From the NCBI GenBank assembly GCA_963771275.1, contig CAVYSW010000010.1, positions 780,201-844,200 on the forward strand: a DNA stretch of 64,000 bases, given 5' to 3'. This stretch comes from an uncultured Gemmatimonadales bacterium. GTDB lineage: Bacteria; Gemmatimonadota; Gemmatimonadetes; Gemmatimonadales; GWC2-71-9. This document shows, piece by piece, positions 51,779 to 63,945 of this stretch. The notes beneath the pieces were generated by a model. It was not told where the DNA came from and did no database searches. It was given only the letters and a program-made list of their open reading frames with translations. Position 1 is the stretch's first letter. The number at the start of each line of letters is the position of its first letter. The translations under genes and the position numbers were made by a program.

Positions 51779-52354
51779 ATGCCGGTCGCGAAGCTGTCAC
51801 GCGAGTTCTACCAGAAGTTCGGGGACAAGATCACCAACGAGCTGGTGGGCTGCTTGAATTCCATCGAGACGAGCTACCGAGCGGAGCTCCGCGACCTGTT
51901 CGAGGCGCAGTTCGGGCGCTTCGAGGAGAAGCTCGCGCACCATGTGGCCGAGACCGAGGCCCGCTTTGGGCGGTTCGAGGAGAAGCTCGCGCACCACATC
52001 GCCGAAACCAGGGCGCTGATCGCGCACCACATCGCCGAAACCAAGGCGCTGCTCGAGCATGGCCTGGCCGAAAACCGGGCGCTGCTCGAGCACGGCCTGG
52101 CCGAAAACCGGGCGCTGCTCGAGCACGGCCTGGCCGACGACCGGGTGCTGCTCGAGCACGGCCTGGCCGAAAACCGGGCGCTGCTCGAGTACGGCTTGGC
52201 CGAAACCCGGGGCGAGCTGAGGACGGAGTTCCGCACGGACATGGCGCAGCTCCGGGTGGAAATCCACGCGGTCAAGGCGGAGCTGCTCAAGTGGAACTTC
52301 GTGTTCTGGGTTCCGGTGGCGCTGGCGCTGATCGGGCTGTACGTGAAGACGTGA
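51779..52354 (+). CDS. DUF1640/CCDC90-like membrane-anchored coiled-coil protein with 11-aa repeats
   Basis: N-terminal head, ALLEHGLAENR x5, C-terminal KAELLKW followed by a TM anchor. Confidence 0.7.
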   Translation: MPVAKLSREFYQKFGDKITNELVGCLNSIETSYRAELRDLFEAQFGRFEEKLAHHVAETEARFGRFEEKLAHHIAETRALIAHHIAETKALLEHGLAENRALLEHGLAENRALLEHGLADDRVLLEHGLAENRALLEYGLAETRGELRTEFRTDMAQLRVEIHAVKAELLKWNFVFWVPVALALIGLYVKT

Positions 52355-53172: not shown

Positions 53173-53519
53173 GCCCTAACCCATTGACCGAATGCCAGTT
53201 ACGCGTGTCGCAGGTTCCAGCGCTCAAGGCCCCCCATTCGCCTCCTCTCGAACATCCGCTTGGCAACGCGGCGTTCGTTAGCTAGGAACATCCTGAGACT
53301 TGGCGGGGAACAGTCAGCAGGGCTCGTCTGCCGGCGCCTCACAAACCCGACAAGTCTTGTTGTTGTGCTCTGACGGCAGCTGTCCCATACTGGCGCGTCT
53401 ACGACCTGCCGGTGGCCCTCCCAGGCCCGCCGCTCGACCGACGCCGCAGCATGACGCCCGCCCCGTGGCGTGACCTTGGGCCTTCGACGAGATCGCATCC
53501 TCCGGACCGAGGTTCCCTC

Positions 53520-55829
53520 ATGCGCAGCGGTCTCTCCCTCGGAGCAGCCACGCTATCGGTGTGTGCCCTCGCGGGCTGCTGGGACGGTGACGCACTCACC
53601 GAGCCCCTCGCTTCCCCGGCCGTACAGGCAGTCCATTGCAGGGCCGACGTCACCGTCGGAACGCTCACATGCGGATCGCCAACCGTCGACGCGGCGTCCG
53701 GGCCGCAGCTCGCGATTACGCTCGGCGGCCAGGACCTGTACGTGCGCCTCGCCTCCAGCAACGTGAGCTACGACGGCTCGGATGTGTTTCAGGCGGATGT
53801 CACCATCCGGAGCCTGATCGCTCAACCGCTGGGCACACTGGACGGGACCACGCTCACCGGGATCAAGGTGTTCTTCCACTCGGGACCCGTGGTGACGAGC
53901 GGCGATGGCTCGGTGACGGTGGCAAACGCCGATGGCACCGGGACGTTCACGGGCGTGAACCAGCCCTACTTCGAGTACAACACGATCCTCGAGCGAGGCG
54001 AGACCTCGGCGTCGAAGACGTGGCAATGGAGCGTGCCGCCGACGGTCGCGACGTTCGAGTTCTCCGTGTTGGTGAACGCGGACATCCCCCACGAGCAGGG
54101 TGTGCTCCAGTGGTCGAAAGTGCTCGGGAGTCGTCTGTGGGACGTGTGGGGCAGCTCACCGACGGATGTCTTCGCCGTGAGTGGTGATGGCGGGATTCTC
54201 CACTACGACGGTTCGGGCTGGGTCAGGCAGGCCGGCGGAAACCCGGAGCCGCTCTATGGTGTCTGGGGCAGCTCCTCGACGGACATCTTTGCCGTGGGGT
54301 CTTTCGGTACGATTCTGCGCTACAACGGCGACGACGTGGAGCACGCAGGCGAGCGGGACGACTTCACACCTCTGGGGCGTATGGGGCAGCTCCTCCACGG
54401 ACGTCTTTGCGGTGGGCGCCGGCGGCAGGATCGTGCACAACGATGGCTCGGGGTGGACCACGCAGGCCAGCGGGACAGGGTCGTCGCTGCAGGCCGTCTG
54501 GGGCAGCTCATCGACGGACGTGTTCGCGGTCGGTACGTCGTATGGCGACGATGCCTATGTGCTGCACTATAACGGATCGAGTTGGACTGCGCTGCTTTGG
54601 GGAACGGACCCGGCGGCCACGAGCCTCTACGGGGTCTGGGGCACCTCCTCGACTGACGTCTTCGCCGTCGGCTCCGCGGTGGGCTACGACGGCCTGATCT
54701 TGCACTACGACGGCTCGGGCTGGACCGCACAGGTCCTCGGGATCGGGGCGCCCACGTTCTACGCCGTCTGGGGCACCTCCTCGACCGACGTCTTCGCGCT
54801 GGGGGCCAGTGGCAGGATCTTCCACTACGACGGCACGGGCTGGAGCGAGCAGACCACCCCGACGATCTCAACGCTCTATGGTGCGTGGGGCAGCTCCTCG
54901 ACGGACGTCTTTGCCGTCGGGCACCTCGGTACTACCCTGCACTACAACGGCAGCGACGTGGAGCGCCCAGACCGGCGCGATCGCTCCATCTCTCAACAGC
55001 GTGTGGGGCAGCTCCTCCACGGACGTCTTTGCCGTAGGGTCTAGCGGCACGATCATGCACTACAACGGCACGAGGTGGAGCGGCCCGACCATCGAGACCG
55101 GTTCAGCTCTCAACGGCGTGTGGGGCAGCTCCTCCACGGACGTCTTTGCCGTGGGGGCGGGTGGCACGATCCTGCACTACAACGGCACGACGTGGGGCAC
55201 GCAGTCAAGCGGCACGACTTCAAATCTCTACGGTGTGTGGGGCAGCTCCGCCGCGGATGTCTTCGCGGTGGGTGCCGACGCCACGATCCTGCACTACGAC
55301 GGCATGAGCTGGAGCACGCAGACAAACGGGACCGGGAGCCATCTTCGGTGTCTGGGGCAGCTCCCCGACGAACGTCTTCGCGGTAGGAGTCGCGGGCTGG
55401 ATCCTGCACTACGACGGCGCGAGCTGGCATGAGGACCGAGCCAGCACGCCGGGCAGCGCCGACCACATGGCCGTGTGGGGCAGCTCCGCCACGGACGTCT
55501 TTGTCGCGGGGTTGGGCGGTGGGTTCAGGCATTACGACGGGTCGAACTGGACCGCGATGACCAACGGCACCGCCATCGACTACATGTACGCGGTGTGGGG
55601 CACCTCGTCGGCGGACGTGTATGCGGTGGGCTGTACGTACACCTCCGTTGGAAATCTGTACGAGGCCACGGTCATTCACTACAACGGCACGAGCTGGACC
55701 GAGCAACTGCGGCGGTCCACGGGGATGGACGGGACTTCCAGTTGCGACCTCCATGGAGTCTGGGGCAGCTCACCCACCCGTGTCTTTGCGGTTGGGGGCT
55801 ACGGGACGGTGTTCCACGGAACGCGGTGA
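53520..55829 (+). CDS. Lipoprotein: conserved N-terminal beta domain + 14 WGSSxxDVFAVG repeats (probable double beta-propeller); 3 frameshifts
   Basis: Lipobox LAGC; the repeats continue across ORFs 53412, 54181, 54809 and 55467, with breaks near 54330, 54952 and 55345. Confidence 0.8.
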
Positions 55830-56021
55830 GGAGGGCGATCGAGACACGCTGCCGGCGCTCGGGTGGGACTCGTCAGAGTGAGGGGGACATGCCTGTTGGG
55901 CACGTGCAACAGCAGCCTGGATCCAAGGTTCCCGCGTGGAGGTTGCGCGCCGGGCCGTCAGGGTGAAGTATTGCGAATCCGACTCCGCTAGCGATCGAGT
56001 GCCCAGCCGTTGGAGGCGACG

Positions 56022-57725
56022 ATGCAGCCTGTTGTCCGGCACCTCACGTGGACGCTCGTAGTGTGCGCCGTGCCGCTCCTCGCCAACGGTTGTTCCGACC
56101 TGCCGGTCGACACGTCCGCGCCAGCCGTGACCCCGGCGGGGCCAAGCGCGTGGCGGAACTTCGCGGTCGCGGTCACCTGTACGGCGAGCGTCGCGCAGGG
56201 CAGCCTCACCTGCAGGCAGCCCCGTCCAACCACGGGCCCCTTCGGACCCAACTTTCTGATCGTGGGTGGGCAGAATCAGTTCGTGCAGCTCGCATCCAGC
56301 GGTGTGAGCTACGACGGCAGCGACATCTTTCAGGCCAACGTGACCGTGAAGGTCCTGTTCGGGCAGCCCATGGGCACCACTGACAGCACGACACCCACGG
56401 GCGTGCGCGTGTTCTTCCACAGCGGCCCCACCACGACGAGCGGCGACGGGTCCGTCACCGTAGCCAATGCGGACGGCACCGATACGTTCACCGGCACCAA
56501 CCAGCCCTATCACCTCTACAACCAGATCCTGTTCACCAACACGACCTCCGCACCCAAGACCTGGCGGTGGCACGTCCCGAACACGGTCAACACGTTCGAC
56601 TTCGAGGTCTACGTCGAGGGCGACGTGCCGTACCCCAACGGGTGGGTGAACGTGGCCCCGAATCCAACAGCGGTGGCACCGGGGGGGCAGGCTTCGCTCG
56701 GCGCGACCGTCCTCGATGTCGTCACGCGAACACTCGGGGGCTCGGTCACGTGGTCCAGCGGGGACGACGCGATCGCGACGGTGAGCGGTACCGGACTCGT
56801 GCTGGGGGTCGCGCCGGGCGTGGTGGACATCACCGCCTCGAACGGCGGGCCGCAGGCGGATGGGTATTCGCGAGTCACCGTGATCGGCAGTGGGTTCAAC
56901 ATCGCACTGCGCCTCCAGCCGGGCGCTTCCACTCCGCCGCAGTACGTGTTGGACGCGTTCGAGATCGCCGCGGCCCGTTGGGAGACGCTGATCACGGGGG
57001 ACCTGTCGAACGTGCTCATACAGAACCAGGCCGTCAGCTGCGCGCCGGCCTTGAACGAGGTCATTGACGACCTGCTGATCTTCATGGACATCGTGCCGAT
57101 CGACGGTGCCGGCGGGATCCTGGGGCAGGCCGGCCCCTGCTACTACCGCTCGACGGGTCACCTCCCGATCACCGGCATGATGCAGTTCGACGTCGACGAC
57201 CTGGCCGCTCTCCACACATCCGGCCAGCTTGAGCAGGTGATCCTCCACGAGATGGGACACGTCCTCGGCATCGGATCGTACTGGAACGCCCTCGGCCTGC
57301 TGAACCCGAGCAATTGCAGCGCCGCGTCACCGGATCCGTACTTCAGCGGCGCGTCCGCCGTGGCCGCCTTCGATGCGGCCGGTGGGACCACCTACGTGGG
57401 CAACAAGGTGCCGGTCGAGAACACTGGCGGAGCGGGCACCGTGTGCTCGCACTGGCGCGAGAGCGTGCTGGACAACGAGCTGATGACGGGATGGCTCAAT
57501 GCGGGCACCAATCTGCTCAGCGCGATCACCGTGGAGTCGCTGGCCGACATGGGGTACACGGTGAACGCGGCCGGTGCCGATGCGTACACCCTCCCATCGG
57601 CGCCGCTGCCGGCCATACGCGCCGGGGCGATCTTCCTCAACAACGACATCCTCGTCGGCCCCGCCTACATGGTGGACGAGCAGGGCCGCGTGACGGTGAT
57701 CCAGCGGCCGTGGCTGGAACAGTGA
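56022..57725 (+). CDS. Lipoprotein: same N-terminal domain + Ig-like domain + leishmanolysin-like (M8) zinc metallopeptidase
   Basis: Lipobox ANGC; VTWSSGDDAIATVSGTGLV (Ig/Big2-like); ILGQAGPC, HEMGHVLG, SHWRE..NELMTG. Confidence 0.88.
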   Translation: MQPVVRHLTWTLVVCAVPLLANGCSDLPVDTSAPAVTPAGPSAWRNFAVAVTCTASVAQGSLTCRQPRPTTGPFGPNFLIVGGQNQFVQLASSGVSYDGSDIFQANVTVKVLFGQPMGTTDSTTPTGVRVFFHSGPTTTSGDGSVTVANADGTDTFTGTNQPYHLYNQILFTNTTSAPKTWRWHVPNTVNTFDFEVYVEGDVPYPNGWVNVAPNPTAVAPGGQASLGATVLDVVTRTLGGSVTWSSGDDAIATVSGTGLVLGVAPGVVDITASNGGPQADGYSRVTVIGSGFNIALRLQPGASTPPQYVLDAFEIAAARWETLITGDLSNVLIQNQAVSCAPALNEVIDDLLIFMDIVPIDGAGGILGQAGPCYYRSTGHLPITGMMQFDVDDLAALHTSGQLEQVILHEMGHVLGIGSYWNALGLLNPSNCSAASPDPYFSGASAVAAFDAAGGTTYVGNKVPVENTGGAGTVCSHWRESVLDNELMTGWLNAGTNLLSAITVESLADMGYTVNAAGADAYTLPSAPLPAIRAGAIFLNNDILVGPAYMVDEQGRVTVIQRPWLEQ

Positions 57726-57784
57726 GCGGCCAAACGCGGAGTGACCGATCCGACAACCAGCGCGCGCTGCGCAGGAGTCATGCG

Positions 57785-57950
57785 ATGAACACGACTAACC
57801 AGCAGTCTCCCACACCGGACGCCCCGCGCCGGCCGTGGACCCCCCCGACGGTGGAGGATCTGCCGAAGCTGACCGACCTCACGCTGCTCACGGGCAGACC
57901 CGATCGGCGGCGGCGGCGGCACCGGGGGCGGAGGCTCGTCGGTCTTCTAG
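57785..57950 (+). CDS. Putative RiPP precursor with lasso-type leader (needs removal of 1 nt at about 57896)
   Basis: AGGAG RBS; MNTTNQQSPTPDAPRRPWTPPTVEDLPKLTDLTL-LTGxPIGGGGGTGGGGSSVF*; TAG at 57948-57950 lies just before the rSAM start. Confidence 0.75.
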
Positions 57951-57953
57951 CCC

Positions 57954-58962
57954 GTGCCGATGCTCGTAGGCTTTGCCGTCACGGAGCACTGCAACCTGCG
58001 GTGCCCCCACTGCATCCGCGACGACGTGACCACCGTACGCTCGCTCGAGCCCGAGCTGATCGCCGCGGTGCTGGATCAGGCAGCGGCCCTGTTCGGGCCG
58101 GTCACGGCGAGCTTCACGGGAGGCGAGCCGCTGCTGCACGCCGAGTTCGGCCGCATCGTGGCGGACTGCGCCGCGCGTGACGTGCCGTACCGCTTCGTCA
58201 CCAACGCCTGGCACTTGAAGCGGGCCGTCCCGCTGCTGCGCCGTCATCGCCCGCAATCCGTGCGGCTGAGCCTCTCCGGGGCGAGCGAAGCCACCCATGA
58301 CGCCGAGCGCGGCCAGGGGAGCTTCCGCCGGGTCCTGCTCGGCGCGGCGCTGCTCACGAACGAGCGGATTCCCGCCTACCTGTCGATCGTGATCGACCGC
58401 CGCAACCGCCACGAGCTCCGGACCGCCGCGGACCTCGCCGAGCAGCTGGGGTGCCTCGGCATCGGGTTCATCCTGCCGCAGCCCACACCCGGCAGCGCCG
58501 CGCGGGACAGCGATCTCCCACCCGAGGATTGGCTGCCGACGGTGCGCGCGGTCCAAGCGCTCGCGGCTGAACCGGGACGACGCTCGGCGGTGACTCTGGA
58601 CTACGGCCACCCGTTCGAGGGCGCGGAAGCACCGTGCGAGACCTTCTCGCGGGCAGCGGATCTACGTCGACACCAAGGGCCGGCTCTGCACCTGCTGCCA
58701 GCTCTCCGGGTTCGGCTTCAACGAGACTGAGGTCGTCGCGGATCTGCACGACGTCTCGCTGGCCGAGGCGTACGAGCGATACGTCCAGCGGGTCGAAGCG
58801 CTGCGCCGGGCCCAGCGGCCTGGGATCGGGAGTCCGCACATCACCGATCCGTTCCCCTGCCTCCGCTGCTGCGTTGCGAGCGGGAAGCTCGAGTGGCTCT
58901 CCCGGCACCCGGGGTCGCACTGGCACCGCGCCGCGCATCGGACGATCACGTCGGCGGCGTGA
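57954..58962 (+). CDS. Radical SAM protein with Twitch/SPASM-like C-terminus (frameshift at about 58650)
   Basis: CNLRCPHC, FTGGEPLL, VTNA, HDAERG..SF; after the shift: C..RIYVDTKGRLCTCCQL...ADLHDVSLAE...FPCLRCC. Confidence 0.88.
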
Positions 58963-58980
58963 TCCGTCAGGTCCACCGGC

Positions 58981-59990
58981 ATGTCGTCCCCATCCACCGT
59001 CTTCATTCGCGCGCTGCGATGGACCACGGCCGCTCTCCGTCACCGGCGCCTGGTCGGCGCCTCCGCCTTGCTGTGCGCGGTCCTGGCGACGGTCGCCACG
59101 CTCGTCTACGGTCCCGAGTACACGGCTGAGTCGTCCTACATTCCCCACATTTCGCCCTACATGTCGGGGTCCGCTCCGATCCAGTTCACCGCGCTGCTGG
59201 GTGGGGCCGGTGTTCGCATACCCTATTCCGAAGCCAGCGAACAGCCCATGTTCTATGAGGAGCTCGTGACGTCGCGCACGATCCTCACCGAGGTCGCGCG
59301 GTTCACCTATCGGTTCCCCCGCCGCCAGGACGGTACGGACAGCCTCGAAGGCAATCTCCTCGCGCTGTGGGGTACGGACGGTGACTCCGAGGAGGAGCGC
59401 CTGGCTGCCGCGCTCGATCGTCTCGAACGCATGGTGTCGGCGGACATGGACCTGAGAACCGGCATCGTCACCGTGAAGACGCGGGCCCGCTGGCCGGATC
59501 TCGCCGAGCAGATGAACCGCCGCATCCTGCAGGCGATCCAGGAGTTCATCTTCCTCAAGCGGAGCGAGCGGTACGAGGCGATGCACGCGTTTGCCGAAGG
59601 GCGGACCCAGGTGGCTGCGCGGGAGCTGTCGAGCGCGGAAGGCGCGCTGCTCGACTTCAACGTGCGCAACCGCCGGTTCGACAACTCACCCCAGCTCGAG
59701 CTGGAAGAACGGCGCCTCCGGGACGAGATGGAGCGGCAGTTGGAGTTCCACACTTCGCTGCTCCTGGCGGCGGAGGAGACGAGCGTCGAGCGGCTGCGGG
59801 ATACGCCGTTCATCACCGTGATCGACTCGCCGGAGGGTGGCGCCCACCGCACGGGCCTTCGACTGCCGCTTGCGATCCCGGTGGGGCTGCTCTTCGGCGG
59901 GCTCCTGGGGATCGCGGCCGCCGTGGTCGTGGACGCGACCACCGTGGGTCGCCACTGGTCGCCACCGATCCCCGAGATCACCAGTCATGA
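58981..59990 (+). CDS. Wzz/polysaccharide co-polymerase-like protein (end uncertain, probable frameshift)
   Basis: N-terminal TM + PEYTAES, periplasmic coiled coil, VIDSP, C-terminal Gly-rich TM (GLLFGGLLG); no tyrosine kinase domain. Confidence 0.75.
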
Positions 59991-61172
59991 GCCGACGCAT
60001 ATGGGCCATCGGTCTCGGCCAGCCTGGGGCGCGAGCCCGGAGAGTGCTCGTGGGGCCATGCTCACCGCGACCGCGGGGAGCGTGCTCGTCGCGTGCGGTG
60101 ACACCACCGCCCCTGACGCGCTCGCCATCGAGATCGCCGGCCGCCTGGAGCGCAGCTGCCGTGGTGAGCCTGAGCGCGAGCTTCGAGGGGACACTCCTGG
60201 CCGATTCCGCGGTCACCTGGACCGCCGAGCCGGCCGGTGCCGTGATATTCCTCGGAGGAGGCAGCGCCACACTCGCCCAGGCGGGGCAAGTGACCTTCAC
60301 CGCGCACGCGGCGGTCGGAACCGGCGCGCGCACCATAACGGTGGCGACGCCTCCGACCATCGTGTTCGACCTGCTGCGCGACGGCAACCGCGACATCTAT
60401 CGGGCGGCGCTCGACGGCGGGGACCTGGCGCGCCTCACGACCGATCCCGGTGACGACGGCGATCCGACGGCGGTGGGCGATCGCGTCGTCTTCGTCAGCT
60501 ATCGGGATGGGAACGGCGAGCTGTATGCGACATCGCTGAGCGGAGGGGCGCCCACGAGGCTCACGTTCACCGACGTGGCCGAAGCGGGACCGGCATTGTC
60601 TCGGGACGGCGCGTGGCTCGCCTACACCAGGAGCGATGGGGGAGTACCCAAGCTGTGGGTGTCACTGTCCAACGGCGGTGCCGCGGCCCGGGTCACCGGG
60701 AGCTTCGGGTTCCCGGGCTCGATCGAGGCCAGCCCGTCCTGGGCTCCGAGCCGGGGATCGTCTGGCCTTCGTGTCCACGTCCGAGGGAACGGCGGACCTG
60801 TTCACCTATACGGTATCCACTGGAGCGTTCGCCCCGCTCGTGCCGGACTCGGCGTCGCGCGCGGAGGTCGAGCCCGCGTGGAGTCCCGATGGCGCGTGGG
60901 TCGCGTTTGCGACCGACCGCCCGGGCGATACCGAGATCTACCTGCTCGAGGTCGCGACGGGCGAGCTGCGTCGCCTGACCAATCGTCCCGATAGCGACGG
61001 ACAGCCGACCTGGGTGCCGGACGGGCGGCTGGTGTACGTCGCCTGGACCGGGGGCGCTCCCGGCCTCCGCTGGCTCGATCCGCAGGTACCGAGCGAGATT
61101 CACGACATCGACGTCGGGCCGGGCGAGCCACGCCACCCGGCCGGCGTTCTCCCGCTACCGGCGGCCCAATGA
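59987..61172 (+). CDS. Lipoprotein with Ig-like segment and TolB/PD40 beta-propeller (frameshifted)
   Basis: Lipobox LVAC; DGNRDIY, YRDGNGELY, PSWAP, PAWSPDG, GDTEIY repeats across ORFs 58981, 59837 and 60636. Confidence 0.75.
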
Positions 61173-61447
61173 GCGACGGCGCACCCGCTCCGCGATACGC
61201 GGTCTCGAAGGACGTGCTGACGGCCCATCTCGAGGGTGAAGCCGTGTTGCTGCACCTCGAGACCAAGCAGTACTACCGCCTCAACGAAACCGCGGCGGCC
61301 ATCTGGCGGGGCCTGGAAGGCGGCCTGGATCCGGCCGACATCGTTGGGGGCCTCGTCAAGGACTTCGAGATCGACGCCGCGACCGCTGAAGCCGAGGTCG
61401 AGCGGGTGCTCGGCGATCTGCGCGAACGGGGTCTCCTCGCATCGTGA
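61169..61447 (+). CDS. PqqD-family RiPP recognition element (lasso B1-like)
   Basis: EAVLLHLETKQYYRLNETAAAIW...LVKDFEID...LRERGLL. Confidence 0.92.
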   Translation: MSDGAPAPRYAVSKDVLTAHLEGEAVLLHLETKQYYRLNETAAAIWRGLEGGLDPADIVGGLVKDFEIDAATAEAEVERVLGDLRERGLLAS

Positions 61448-61833
61448 CGAGCCGTTTGCTCGAGATGGCGATCGGGACCGGCGCCGCGCTCCGCAGTCCC
61501 CTGTGGATCACGGGCTCGCGCCTGCAACGGCTGCTGCAGGACACCCCCGGCGTCTCGCGGGGCTCCCGTCATCCCGAGACGGCGACGCGAGCTTCCCTGC
61601 TCGCCCTGAGGGCGCTCGCGCGCCTTCCCCTGCTCCCGTGGCGGAATACGTGCCTCTACCGCAGCGTCGCCGAGTGTCTCGTGCTGCGGAGCTGCGGGAT
61701 CGGCTGCCGGCTGCAACTCGGCGTGTCGCACGACGCCGCGTCGGGTGACGGGATCGTGGCCCACGCGTGGGTGGAGCGCAGTGACCGAGAGCAGGCCGAT
61801 CACCCTCACGTCCTGCTGCGCCCTGGTTCGTGA
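61444..61833 (+). CDS. Lasso B2-type transglutaminase-like leader peptidase
   Basis: TCLYRS ... LQLGV ... AHAWVE (catalytic Cys/His). Confidence 0.9.
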   Translation: MTSRLLEMAIGTGAALRSPLWITGSRLQRLLQDTPGVSRGSRHPETATRASLLALRALARLPLLPWRNTCLYRSVAECLVLRSCGIGCRLQLGVSHDAASGDGIVAHAWVERSDREQADHPHVLLRPGS

Positions 61834-62796
61834 GCATTCGTGGAGACGACGGGCAGATCGCGCACGCGTTGCTGGCAGATCAATCGCTCGTGCTGCGGTC
61901 GGACCCCCGCTGCTGGCCCCTCGTCCAGTCCGTGGGTGCCGCTGAGCTGCGATCCGGCAGAAGGGACGCAGCACCTCGCGCCGTCGTGGCGGTCGAGCCC
62001 CTGCAGTCCCCAGCACCGCCATCCCGAGAGGCTGGGCGACCCACCCTCACGGTTGGGCCCGTCGGTGCTTGGCTCGAACCCGGTGCGGCCAGCGCGGCGT
62101 TGCAGGGGGTTACCGGCAGCTGGGGCCGGCTCGACCTCACCACGCTGCACGCCACGCTGCGGGCGGACCTCGCTGCGGGCGAGGCAGCCGGTGCCGACCT
62201 CTACGCCATGCTCACCATCGCGTCGGCGCTGCTGCTCGGCCGAATGAGACGGCCGTTGATCCATGCCGGAGCGGTCGTGGCACCCGACGGGAGGGGCTGG
62301 CTCGTCGTGGGCGATGCGCGGTCGGGCAAGTCCACGACGTGCGTGAGCCTCGCGAGCGCCGGCTGGGGACTGCTGTCGGACGACCAGGTGGTGCTCACGC
62401 CGAACGGGCCCACGCTCGAAGTCGAGGGCTGGCTGCGACCCGTGCATCTCGACGAGGGTTGGCGTGACGGGATGCCGCGGGGCCGCCGCCGGACGGTGCA
62501 TCCCTCCGAGCTGGCCGCCGGTGCGCCGTGCCGCGTCGTGCCGCTGGCCGGCACCGTGCACACGTCGGTCGATGCCAGACCAACCGACGCACGTCTCCAA
62601 GATGGCAGCGGGCGATGCGTTCACGGGGCTGGTCCGCCAGTCCCCGTGGCTGCTGGCCGACCGCGTGGTGGCACCGTCATTGGCCGACATCTTGTCGGCC
62701 GTCGCCCGGCTGCCGCGGTTCTCCCTGCGATTGGGACTGGACACGTTCGGCAGGCCGGACCGGCTGCGAGCGCTGCTTACGCCGGCGCTGTTTTAG
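61830..62796 (+). CDS. HPr kinase-like peptide kinase (frameshift at about 62577)
   Basis: LIHAGAVV, GDARSGKSTT (Walker A), LLSDD; the C-terminus continues in ORF 62464..62796. Confidence 0.85.
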
Positions 62797-63945
62797 GCCG
62801 CGCCTTCGTCGCACGGGCCGCGGCATGAGGTCGCCAGCAAGGCGAGCGGCGCAGCCAGGACCGTGGCGAACACTACTCGCATCACCCGGCTCGTGACCCG
62901 CACGCCCCGGCCGAGTCGCGGCGCCCGCCGCTCGATCCACGCGATGGAACGGGACGACGACGGACCTGTGGTCACCATCCGCACCCTGCCCCACTCTCTG
63001 CGCATGTCGGCCCGGCCGGCGATGAGCGCAACCGCCCACTTGCCGACATCGGCGCGGATCACTTCGGGCAGGGGCAGCCACCTGCCGCGCCAGCTGACGT
63101 AGTACGCAACGGCGGCCTGATACACAAATCGGTCCTCGAACGATGCGGTGCCCGCGAACCCTCGGGCCATGGACAGCATGTCCTGGAGCGTGTGCGCGTA
63201 CGGATGAGTCTCGAGTGCCGCCGTGACATCTGCTCAGCTCGTCGTCGCTGCACCGCGTCAGCGCCTGGCTGAGGAGTAGCAAGTCCCGGATCGCTCCCCG
63301 CCGGTACGGGTGCAGCACGCCGACGTGTACGAGGAGGTGCCAGAGATGGTCCCGCGGAGCGAGACCGCGGAGATGCTTGGTCCCGGCCAGCGGGGTCACC
63401 CGGCTCCAGACCGACTCGGCCCACTCGCAGCCCACCATGTCGATGCTGGCGTGGACTTCGACCTTGAGCCCTCCATCGGCGATTCTCCCCTCGAGGTGCG
63501 AGGGGCTGCTGGCCCCGGCAGCGCGGTAGCCGGCCGAGTCGAGCGCCGCGGCAAGTGCCCGGGCGTCCTGCGGCGTCGCCAAGACGTCGAGATCGGTCAA
63601 GTCCGCGGCGTCTCGGTCGGTGAGCGCCGCAACACCACCCTTGAGCACCACGATGTTCCACCCGTGCTCCTCCCCCAGCCGATCGATCAAGAAGAGCTGC
63701 GCCCGAGCACTGAGCACCCGCTGCAGCTCGGCCCGAGCGGCGTCGTCGAGCTCATGCTTCGGTTCCCGCTCGAGCAGTGCGTACTGACTGCCCGCAACGA
63801 GGCGGGCCTTGAGCGGCAACGCACATCGCTCGGCCCGGAGGAAGAAGTGCCAGGAGGCGGGCGAGCACGCAGGTGGCGCACCGGGGCCGAGCGCCAGCGT
63901 CCGGAGCGCCCAGGCCCGCAGCTCAAGGACTTCACTGATCTTCAT
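62793..63945 (-). CDS. Nucleotidyltransferase (NTP_transf_5-like; frameshift at about 63225)
   Basis: VVLKGG, DLTDLDVL, VEVH, HLLVH..H, RDLLLL; the C-terminus is in ORF 62793..63179; convergent with the kinase. Confidence 0.82.

Follow-up and report, generated by a model that had tools for sequence, protein, structure and literature searches.

A probable cyclase-less RiPP-type cassette with a lasso-style leader, a radical SAM enzyme and linked envelope lipoproteins in an uncultured Gemmatimonadales bacterium

Among the peptides that are made by ribosomes and modified after translation (RiPPs), the phosphorylated lasso peptides are encoded by clusters with split B1 and B2 proteins, such as those of paeninodin (PadeK/ThcoK), pseudomycoidin (PsmK/PsmN) and Bradymonas Bsf, and PMC9266682 and PMC10368454 present B1, B2, a kinase and a nucleotidyltransferase as the accessory set of such clusters. 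According to these two sources, lasso kinases phosphorylate a Ser of the precursor, i.e., the C-terminal Ser in paeninodin and Ser3 in BsfA, B1 accelerates the reaction, and PsmN attaches a hexose to the phospho-Ser. According to PMC10368454, phosphorylated lasso precursors carry a YxxPxL motif at positions -17 to -12 and a Thr (rarely Ile/Val) at -2, and BsfK and other lasso precursor kinases carry residues H148, G163, G166, G168, K169, S170, D186 and D187. Two other kinds of systems stand close to these clusters. The SynChlorMet (Scm; TIGR04248-04251) and HPr-rel-A (TIGR04352/04353) systems, as delimited by these NCBIfam models, combine HPrK-like and PqqD-like proteins with radical S-adenosylmethionine (rSAM) enzymes of the SPASM type and have no cyclase. 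In the couples PqqE/PqqD, MftC/MftB and StsB/StsC (streptosactin), an rSAM enzyme of the SPASM/Twitch superfamily, devoid of a RiPP recognition element (RRE) of its own, stands beside a small PqqD protein. The present work deals with a locus at positions 57785-63945 of a 64,000-nucleotide stretch, hereafter called the window, from an uncultured Gemmatimonadales bacterium (assembly GCA_963771275.1, contig CAVYSW010000010.1), in which features of all these systems occur side by side.

The locus is probably a functional, cyclase-less RiPP-type cassette, which forms the Gemmatimonadota branch of a widespread kinase/rSAM/PqqD cassette with the B2 peptidase and the nucleotidyltransferase as frequent members. 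Its sequences show neither of the two defining attributes of the lasso pathways, the cyclase and the core, and it would correspond to a RiPP-like pathway that keeps the lasso leader register. The evidence observed directly consists of the gene content, the conservation, the absence of a cyclase, the catalytic residues, the leader register and the lipoprotein linkage. A preliminary description, made from the letters of the window, had proposed a non-lasso, rSAM-associated, Gly-rich peptide served by B1/B2, a kinase and a nucleotidyltransferase, with no cyclase, and this central proposal held in all tests run. The genes concerned are the following.

53412 to 55829, plus strand: lipoprotein 1, with a lipobox signal, a conserved N-terminal domain (NTD) and beta-propeller-like repeats
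56010 to 57725, plus strand: lipoprotein 2, with a lipobox signal, NTD, Big_2 domain and leishmanolysin-like (M8) metalloprotease domain
57785 to 57950, plus strand: precursor peptide, with a W-x-x-P-x-V and L-T-x-L-T-L leader and a Gly-rich core ending in S-S-V-F
57954 to 58962, plus strand: radical SAM enzyme (PF04055, 70 bits), with a Twitch-type auxiliary-cluster domain and without an N-terminal RRE
58981 to 60100, plus strand: Wzz/PCP-like inner-membrane protein, weak match to TIGR01010 (BexC/KpsE) at 29-31 bits
60058 to 61172, plus strand: TolB-like lipoprotein, with a lipobox signal, an N-terminal domain and a PD40 beta-propeller (PD40 and TolB matches)
61169 to 61447, plus strand: PqqD-family discrete RRE, B1-like (PF05402, 73 bits)
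61444 to 61833, plus strand: B2 cysteine peptidase of the lasso type, transglutaminase-like (NF033537, 54.7 bits; cut-off 33)
61830 to 62796, plus strand: HPrK-like peptide kinase (HprK_rel_A, about 35-36 bits, under its cut-off of 200)
62793 to 63945, minus strand: PF14907 nucleotidyltransferase (59 bits), convergent with the kinase gene

All gene types named in the preliminary description between 57785 and 63945 were found at their places. Open reading frames (ORFs) and family scans confirmed the plus-strand run from the precursor to the kinase and the facing nucleotidyltransferase gene, and the coordinates bear out the overlapping junctions, each of 4 nt, between the TolB-like and PqqD genes (61169-61172), the PqqD and B2 genes (61444-61447) and the B2 and kinase genes (61830-61833). 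The cluster starts further upstream, at about 53.4 kb, with the two lipoprotein genes. Lipoprotein 1 is broken into several ORFs of the window by frameshifts, and its NTD match covers window positions 53628-54101, with 58% identity to the NTD encoded by a second copy of the locus on contig C8, while lipoprotein 2 matches PF01457 (52.5 bits) and PF02368 (38.5 bits). The 3' end of the Wzz-like gene is uncertain owing to an indel at 60051, one contig having an additional G behind this position. In the TolB-like lipoprotein, the family scans detected no peptidase domain.

The precursors, which measure about 52-70 aa and possess a core of 13-23 residues, form a family whose aligned sequences show a lasso-style leader and not a lasso core. 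Eight residues, W24, P27, L32, P33, L35, L38, T39 and L40, are invariant among 35 aligned precursors, and in all 35 the distance from the Trp to the predicted cut, at the end of the invariant L-T-L, is exactly 17 residues, with Thr at -2. The leader thus follows the register given for YxxPxL at -17 to -12 and Thr at -2 in PMC10368454, and the core register for all counts was fixed by W(-17) and T(-2). Core position 2 is Ser/Thr in 34 of the 35 precursors and is followed, some residues later, by a near-invariant Ile and Gly and by a Gly-rich middle, and a C-terminal [ST][VIC][FIVTC] motif occurs in 33. The rules that apply to lasso cores are seldom obeyed: a Gly, Ala, Ser or Cys occupies position 1 in 7/35, and an Asp or Glu able to serve as ring acceptor occurs at positions 7-9 in 8/35, so that the lack of such an acidic residue, first pointed out for the precursor of the window, extends to most of the family. 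Cys occurs in the core of six precursors and the other 29 cores are Cys-free, which makes a thioether chemistry unlikely. In Longimicrobium-type loci (L068-L070, L073 and L120), the Val of the C-terminal motif is replaced by Cys and a second Cys occurs in the core; these precursors may carry a disulfide or a different cross-link. None of the 35 precursors has an NCBIfam match at a useful E-value, two of them touching the 'rhodolasso' model at E 0.002, and the C8 copy has neither a Pfam nor an NCBIfam match.

No lasso cyclase accompanies these genes. The Asn_synthase family PF00733 was found neither among 245 ORFs of 18 related Gemmatimonadota loci, called with a crude GC3-based script (Pfam scan, E <= 1e-5 or 1e-6), nor among 25 long ORFs of two further loci of low G+C content, which were scanned by long ORFs instead (E <= 1e-12; three ORFs longer than 880 aa excluded). 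The absence of a cyclase from the operon, as asserted in the preliminary description, is accordingly borne out by 0/20 related neighbourhoods with PF00733, and also by the lasso-cyclase model NF033535, which is passed by none of five cassette genomes, the present one included (best score 226 bits against a cut-off of 525). The present genome measures 3.86 Mb, with 70% G+C and 11 contigs. Besides three weak matches, PF00733 is represented in it by a full-length AsnB on contig C3 and by a truncated gene located where contig C6 starts, and B2 occurs in the whole genome as two copies only, on contigs C10 and C8. The C6 fragment was considered as the missing cyclase and rejected, with 153 bits for a generic asparagine synthase versus 81 bits for the lasso model (cut-off 525) and a location adjoining NadE.

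The window represents the final 64 kb of the 844-kb contig C10 and its edge is the end of that contig. A search for PF00733 past the end had been advised and a continuation of the cluster beyond the window considered. Contig C8 reaches 3.9 kb beyond the end of C10 and shows an intergenic gap followed by rmlA, rmlC, rmlD and rmlB (dTDP-rhamnose; L008:7649-11275), without any cyclase. The cluster extends further upstream, to about 53.4 kb. The minus-strand gene thought to end at about 63950 is not supported, since on C8 the start of the nucleotidyltransferase gene is followed by the intergenic gap and by rmlA on the plus strand.

The copy carried by contig C8 (L008, 11.3 kb) is a second version of the locus, 86-88% identical, and holds an intact precursor (60 aa), rSAM (335 aa) and kinase (321 aa). 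In the window, the precursor, rSAM, TolB-like, kinase and nucleotidyltransferase genes are each split by 1-nt indels. The pairwise alignment of both copies contains 26 indels, and most of those in the common genes are single-base indels. In the window, one extra base breaks the precursor frame near 57895-57898 and another the rSAM frame near 58649-58651, several 1-nt indels affect the TolB-like gene, and others occur near 61929, 61964 and 62574 in the kinase gene and near 62827-62838, 63232 and 63744 in the nucleotidyltransferase gene. Public short-read contigs, checked at five sites, lack the extra base of the window at 57898 (precursor), 58649 (rSAM), 60158 and 60751 (TolB-like gene) and 63232 (nucleotidyltransferase). 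At 63232, the short-read contig equals the window over 201 bases apart from the missing extra base, and at 58649 the contig concerned shows three other differences in 151 bases. Beyond these five sites, indels remain at 60051, 60686, 61050, 61929, 61964, 62574, 62797-62838 and 63744. The best of the public runs holds only 0.21 of the sampled words, and large parts of the stretch are without cover; the figures of runs X2 and X3 coincide, probably because a single data set was filed under both. Contig C8 is itself frameshifted, in the TolB-like gene as well as in several rml genes, and the occurrence of frameshifts in housekeeping genes points to an error-prone assembly. Because the short-read contigs lack the extra bases, the frameshifts are read as assembly errors and not as decay: the assembly is prone to indels, and the organism itself has intact genes. 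The frameshifts in this metagenome-assembled genome (MAG) should not be taken for gene decay.

The two copies diverge unevenly over window positions 55577-63939, with 100% identical protein sequences for PqqD and B2 and identities of 93-96% for the rSAM enzyme, 81-88% for the kinase, 80% for the M8 lipoprotein and 62-75% for the nucleotidyltransferase, and the Wzz-like gene is present in C10 only. This pattern looks like two strains, or a recombination mosaic, binned as one genome. Elsewhere in the assembly, the start of contig C3 and contig C7 contain many common copies of a repeat of about 145-150 bp, with 86-99% identity. Within the window, a 191-aa ORF at 51779-52354 (plus strand) contains a run of near-identical repeats, each of 8-11 residues (type H-G-L-A-E-N-R-A-L-L-E); its C-terminus is hydrophobic, and long ORFs in other frames overlap it.

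The enzymes encoded by the cassette appear intact when their orthologues are aligned. In the rSAM enzyme, the CxxxCxxC motif (C13/C17/C20) and the residues C228, C247, C248, C302 and C305 are invariant in 18 sequences, a combination of N-terminal motif and C-terminal auxiliary cysteines that agrees with a SPASM/Twitch maturase. The full seven-Cys SPASM pattern is not conserved, and the auxiliary cysteines are Twitch-like, in a pattern for one auxiliary cluster, in accordance with the definitions of the Twitch and SPASM domains. The protein begins directly with CxxxCxxC at residues 13-20 and hence has no RRE of its own. Its structure model (pLDDT 88.5) has BlsE, SuiB, PqqE, anSME, SkfB and CteB as nearest folds (TM 0.6-0.7), its nearest solved protein by sequence is PqqE (E 3.9e-15), followed by SkfB, BlsE, MoaA and YydG, and its scores with the named NCBIfam rSAM models that it matches, among them ScmF, StsB, MftC and heme b synthase, are 50-67 bits, where the cut-offs are 265-625. 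The PqqD protein reaches 59.3 bits with the lasso-specific model NF033530 (cut-off 70) and 44 bits with NF033536 (cut-off 80). The B2 peptidase conserves Cys70 and His107 in 21 sequences, as a lasso B2 does. In the kinase, conservation over 27 sequences reaches 93% or more at H145, G161, G166, K167, D184 and D185, and the spacing fits the H148...K169...D186-D187 motif of BsfK, as given for lasso precursor kinases in PMC10368454. The nucleotidyltransferase conserves G77, D92 and D94 (G...DxD) in 19 sequences.

Of 401 genomes sampled from the phylum Gemmatimonadota, 28 encode an orthologue of the C8 rSAM enzyme, and 18 of 147 genera are represented. Searches by tblastn with the window proteins in 20 fetched loci (<=20 kb) revealed the precursor, rSAM, TolB-like, PqqD, B2, kinase and nucleotidyltransferase genes together, in many gene orders and with a single rSAM gene per locus; outside this core set, the flanks of the 20 loci have nothing in common. 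Additional loci came from a scan of one genome per species and, after removal of duplicates, 50 Gemmatimonadota loci were available, of which many lie on short contigs cut by their ends, so that the counts are minima: the precursor (strict motif) was found in 36 loci, the TolB-like gene in 33, PqqD in 31, the NTD lipoprotein in 28, the kinase in 27, B2 in 21, the nucleotidyltransferase in 20 and the Wzz-like gene in one. Hence, the recurrence of the set without a cyclase, which the preliminary description had wished to see examined in the neighbourhoods of homologues, is observed in the 20 related Gemmatimonadota loci, with the exception of the Wzz-like gene. The latter had been listed as a member of the set and must be regarded as accessory; its presence in only 1/50 loci and its absence from C8 rule it out as a core member.

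More distant homologues of the rSAM enzyme, about 28-37% identical, were identified in the anammox Planctomycetes Brocadia, Scalindua and Jettenia, in Acidobacteriota, Nitrospira and Calditrichia, and in delta-proteobacterial MAGs, with the genes arranged as kinase-rSAM-PqqD. In 24 of these wider loci (L095-L118; tblastn), a kinase gene occurs in 20, usually directly upstream of the rSAM gene, and a PqqD gene in 22. The family scan adds a kinase and a B2 above cut-off in Brocadia, where B2 and PF14907 are both present, and PF14907 occurs in at least five of the wider-cassette loci. A scan of 74 ORFs (420-760 aa) belonging to 20 of the loci gave no PF00733. Small upstream ORFs in the wider loci possess Y/F-x-x-P-x-L/V/I leaders and very different cores, one of them Cys-rich. 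In the Calditrichia locus L098 (11425-12438), the product of the gene between the rSAM and PqqD genes is a secreted protein that has a choice-of-anchor J domain and a type IX secretion system (T9SS) sorting tail, and in L096 a TolB-like protein gene follows the rSAM gene; it may be that secreted proteins generally accompany the wider cassette. Kinase, rSAM and PqqD, joined in some loci by B2 or the nucleotidyltransferase, thus form an old and widespread combination and not a local re-use of lasso parts. In this respect, the original idea of a lasso machinery repurposed for a non-lasso, rSAM-associated, Gly-rich peptide keeps the non-lasso and cyclase-less set and leaves the direction 'from lasso' unsupported, the kinase-rSAM-PqqD core being itself widespread.

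The gene set is also linked to envelope lipoproteins. In lipoprotein 2, encoded just upstream of the precursor, only residues 45-210 or so, which make up the NTD (the first ~160 mature residues), recur in related loci, where the NTD carries quite different C-terminal domains. Among the 401 genomes, the NTD was found in 31: 21 genomes have both the NTD and the rSAM enzyme, 7 the rSAM enzyme only, 10 the NTD only and 363 neither. Of the seven rSAM-only genomes, two have contig ends beside the rSAM gene, four have an rSAM enzyme 34-44% identical to the query and one an enzyme at 61%. Genomes encode one to eight NTD proteins, and lipobox signals were present in all those examined. Twenty distal NTD loci yielded five extra precursor genes (four loci from three genomes), located on contigs devoid of the rSAM gene and each adjoining an NTD-lipoprotein gene. 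One genome contains three tandem paralogues in which a single ORF runs from leader and core through a hydrophobic stretch and a lipobox Cys into the NTD. In L093 (6987-7900), from a long-read MAG, the precursor loses its frame in a Gly-coding GGC repeat and continues as one ORF into an NTD lipoprotein; this may be another fused form or else an assembly error of the type described above. The NTD is modelled as a beta-sandwich (pLDDT 81.7). Foldseek gave no match against the PDB at E <= 0.001, and the best Z obtained with VIA-align over 48,161 chains was 7.7, for a shrimp-virus envelope protein, followed by carbohydrate-binding module (CBM) and adaptin-appendage beta-sandwiches, values which lie within the background of the tool. 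Complex predictions of the NTD with the precursor disagreed from run to run (0.00, 0.67 and 0.00). Taken as gene linkage, these data suggest that the peptide is functionally tied to the lipoproteins; the pairing of precursor and NTD lipoprotein is new in this analysis. A link to the envelope had been foreseen and is real, but its route goes through the NTD lipoprotein family and the TolB-like gene, which had not been singled out.

From these elements, a pathway can be proposed in which the discrete PqqD protein would recognise the W(-17)-x-x-P-x-L/V leader, bind the precursor (about 52-70 aa) by it and hand the precursor over to the RRE-less rSAM enzyme with its one Twitch-type auxiliary cluster. 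This enzyme would alter the Cys-free, Gly-rich core, the likely site being a conserved beta-branched residue (Ile6, or the Thr-Val near the C-terminus), and the modification would more likely be an epimerisation or a C-C/C-O cross-link than a thioether. The HPrK-like kinase would then phosphorylate a conserved Ser/Thr, at core position 2 or in the C-terminal Ser-Thr, and the PF14907 enzyme would extend the phosphate on that residue, two steps suggested by the phosphorylation of lasso precursors and by the PsmN precedent. The B2 peptidase would cleave after the invariant L-T-L (Thr at -2), no lasso ring would be formed, and the product would work together with envelope lipoproteins, namely the TolB-like propeller and the NTD beta-sandwich family.

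Other readings of the locus have to be weighed against this cassette. An ordinary kinase-type lasso cluster, with its cyclase and perhaps a second precursor located elsewhere in the genome or past the contig end, could account for the accessory set held in common with the paeninodin-, pseudomycoidin- and Bsf-type clusters, for a window that stops at the end of a contig and for a truncated Asn-synthase gene at the start of C6. This reading is already largely refuted and has become scarcely credible: rml genes stand beyond the nucleotidyltransferase gene on C8, PF00733 gave nothing in the 20 neighbourhoods and NF033535 was passed in none of the five genomes, the C6 gene next to NadE fits a generic asparagine synthase better, and both the acidic residue at core positions 7-9 and the small residue at position 1 are missing from most precursors. 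The window copy might also be a decaying pseudogene cluster with real frameshifts, as at least nine 1-nt indels across six genes relative to C8, some of them outside homopolymer runs, would seem to indicate. It is very improbable that decay explains them, considering the short-read contigs that lack the extra bases at five sites, among them the otherwise identical contig at 63232, the frameshifts of C8 that hit even the rml housekeeping genes, and the catalytic residues kept by the orthologues.

A reading in terms of a small peptide-derived cofactor, comparable to pyrroloquinoline quinone (PQQ) or mycofactocin and made from the C-terminal Thr-Val-Phe with the rest of the precursor discarded, appears improbable. 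An rSAM enzyme with a discrete PqqD corresponds to the PQQ/mycofactocin architecture, PqqE is the best solved sequence relative (E 3.9e-15), the mycofactocin maturase ranks among the top NCBIfam matches (56-60 bits), the C-terminal motif is found in nearly all precursors and no conserved exporter was found. These maturase scores are far under the cut-offs of 265-381 bits, Pfam scans of the neighbourhoods showed no homologues of the later steps of PQQ or mycofactocin synthesis, and several precursors have a Pro, Gly or Ala after the motif while the fused forms go on for about 800 residues, which implies that a free C-terminal carboxylate is not required. The linkage with lipoproteins admits two further proposals. 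Each precursor might be the partner of an NTD envelope lipoprotein (in one genome, its fused N-terminal extension), with modifications that control the export, sorting, anchoring or switching-on of the lipoprotein, and would then not be a free antibiotic; this proposal is put forward tentatively and is rather doubtful. Alternatively, the peptide would be a detachable N-terminal module of the NTD lipoproteins themselves, and the enzymes would modify a pro-signal gating their export, sorting, anchoring or activation. The three fused leader-core-lipobox-NTD paralogues, the common adjacency of precursor and NTD-lipoprotein genes (including 5/5 extra precursors on other contigs), the co-distribution of the NTD and the rSAM enzyme in 21 genomes and, again, the lack of a conserved exporter speak in its favour. 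Such a module nevertheless seems unlikely, since most precursors (35) are separate genes with their own stop codon, the lipoproteins have ordinary signal peptides of their own, 16 of the 20 fetched distal NTD-lipoprotein loci lack a nearby leader-like peptide, the NTD occurs without the rSAM enzyme in 10 genomes and the rSAM enzyme without the NTD in 7, and the wider cassette of other phyla, in the loci examined, is devoid of the NTD family.

Returning to the cyclase-less RiPP-type cassette as the preferred reading, several observations weigh against it. All the chemical steps and the biological role are deduced, the chemistry from family membership, and except for B2, PF05402, PF04055 and PF14907, the family matches all fall below curated cut-offs. 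With the crude ORF calls in the related loci, a gene of small size or unusual composition might have escaped notice. Of the 24 loci holding both PqqD and the kinase, five gave no B2, and several long loci have only a partial set near the rSAM gene, with L081 reduced to the precursor and the rSAM gene within 10 kb on each side, which indicates a set looser than an obligate operon. The related neighbourhoods contain no conserved dedicated exporter, a result that fits badly with a secreted product acting on periplasmic lipoproteins. Finally, the related genomes are not independent and the co-occurrence counts overstate the support.

With respect to the described systems, the cassette resembles the phosphorylated lasso clusters with split B1/B2 by its discrete PqqD-type RRE, its B2 and its PF14907 protein, by the H...G..G.GKS...DD motif and spacing of its kinase, and by a leader in which positions -17, -14 and -2 are occupied by an aromatic residue, Pro and Thr, respectively. 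It differs from them by the absence of both a cyclase and an ABC exporter, by an rSAM gene placed directly after the precursor, by a core mostly devoid of ring-forming residues and by the linked lipoprotein genes. When the rSAM, PqqD and kinase proteins are compared with named families, the SynChlorMet and HPr-rel-A models rank among the best matches, but the scores stay well under the cut-offs, both for SynChlorMet (ScmF 66.8 vs. 400, ScmE 51 vs. 400, ScmD 26.3 vs. 100 and ScmC 19.6 vs. 125 bits) and for HPr-rel-A (kinase A, TIGR04352, 35.9 vs. 200; PqqD, TIGR04353, 25.8 vs. 35); moreover, the cassette has one rSAM enzyme instead of the two of SynChlorMet and adds the B2, nucleotidyltransferase and lipoprotein genes. 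It shares with the rSAM maturases that have a discrete PqqD partner a recognition motif of the W/YxxP type, as described in a 2025 survey (PMC12710340), in which the W/Y/LxxP/L/I motif is common to lasso, PQQ and sactipeptide RREs and is not specific for a RiPP class. PqqE, SkfB and the epimerase YydG are solved sequence relatives of its rSAM enzyme. It departs from these maturases by having only Twitch-like auxiliary cysteines, by its 29/35 Cys-free cores and by the presence of the kinase, nucleotidyltransferase and B2. An assignment to the mycofactocin or PQQ pathways is contradicted by the scores of the MftC model (56-60 vs. 265 bits) and the PqqE model (49 vs. 381 bits) and by the lack of other families of these pathways in the neighbourhoods. 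According to the accessible part of PMC7470986, RRE-Finder encountered about 300 proteins matching the discrete lasso RRE model that co-occur with rSAM enzymes and were treated as false positives; they probably belong to the same broad class as the present cassette, and that part of the source gives them no name, precursor, kinase, nucleotidyltransferase or lipoprotein linkage. Literature searches combining lasso, rSAM, kinase and nucleotidyltransferase, or using SynChlorMet/HprK-related terms, Gemmatimonadota RiPPs and the Pfam names, retrieved no published product, structure or paper for such a cassette and no paper on the SynChlorMet or HPr-rel-A systems.

The cassette merges the peptide chemistry of rSAM enzymes with a lasso-type handling of the leader, a kinase and a nucleotidyltransferase, and it spans several phyla of poorly cultured soil and wastewater bacteria. 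Since the cores mostly have no cysteine, the reaction of the rSAM enzyme on this nearly all-glycine peptide must differ from the usual formation of thioethers. Genome-mining rules that call a 'lasso' from the association of B1, B2 and a kinase will misfile such loci. The tie between precursors and lipoproteins suggests a role outside the usual picture of RiPPs as antibiotics or signals and, if each precursor does turn out to be the partner of an envelope lipoprotein, the cassette would represent a peptide-based system of protein sorting or activation of an undescribed kind.

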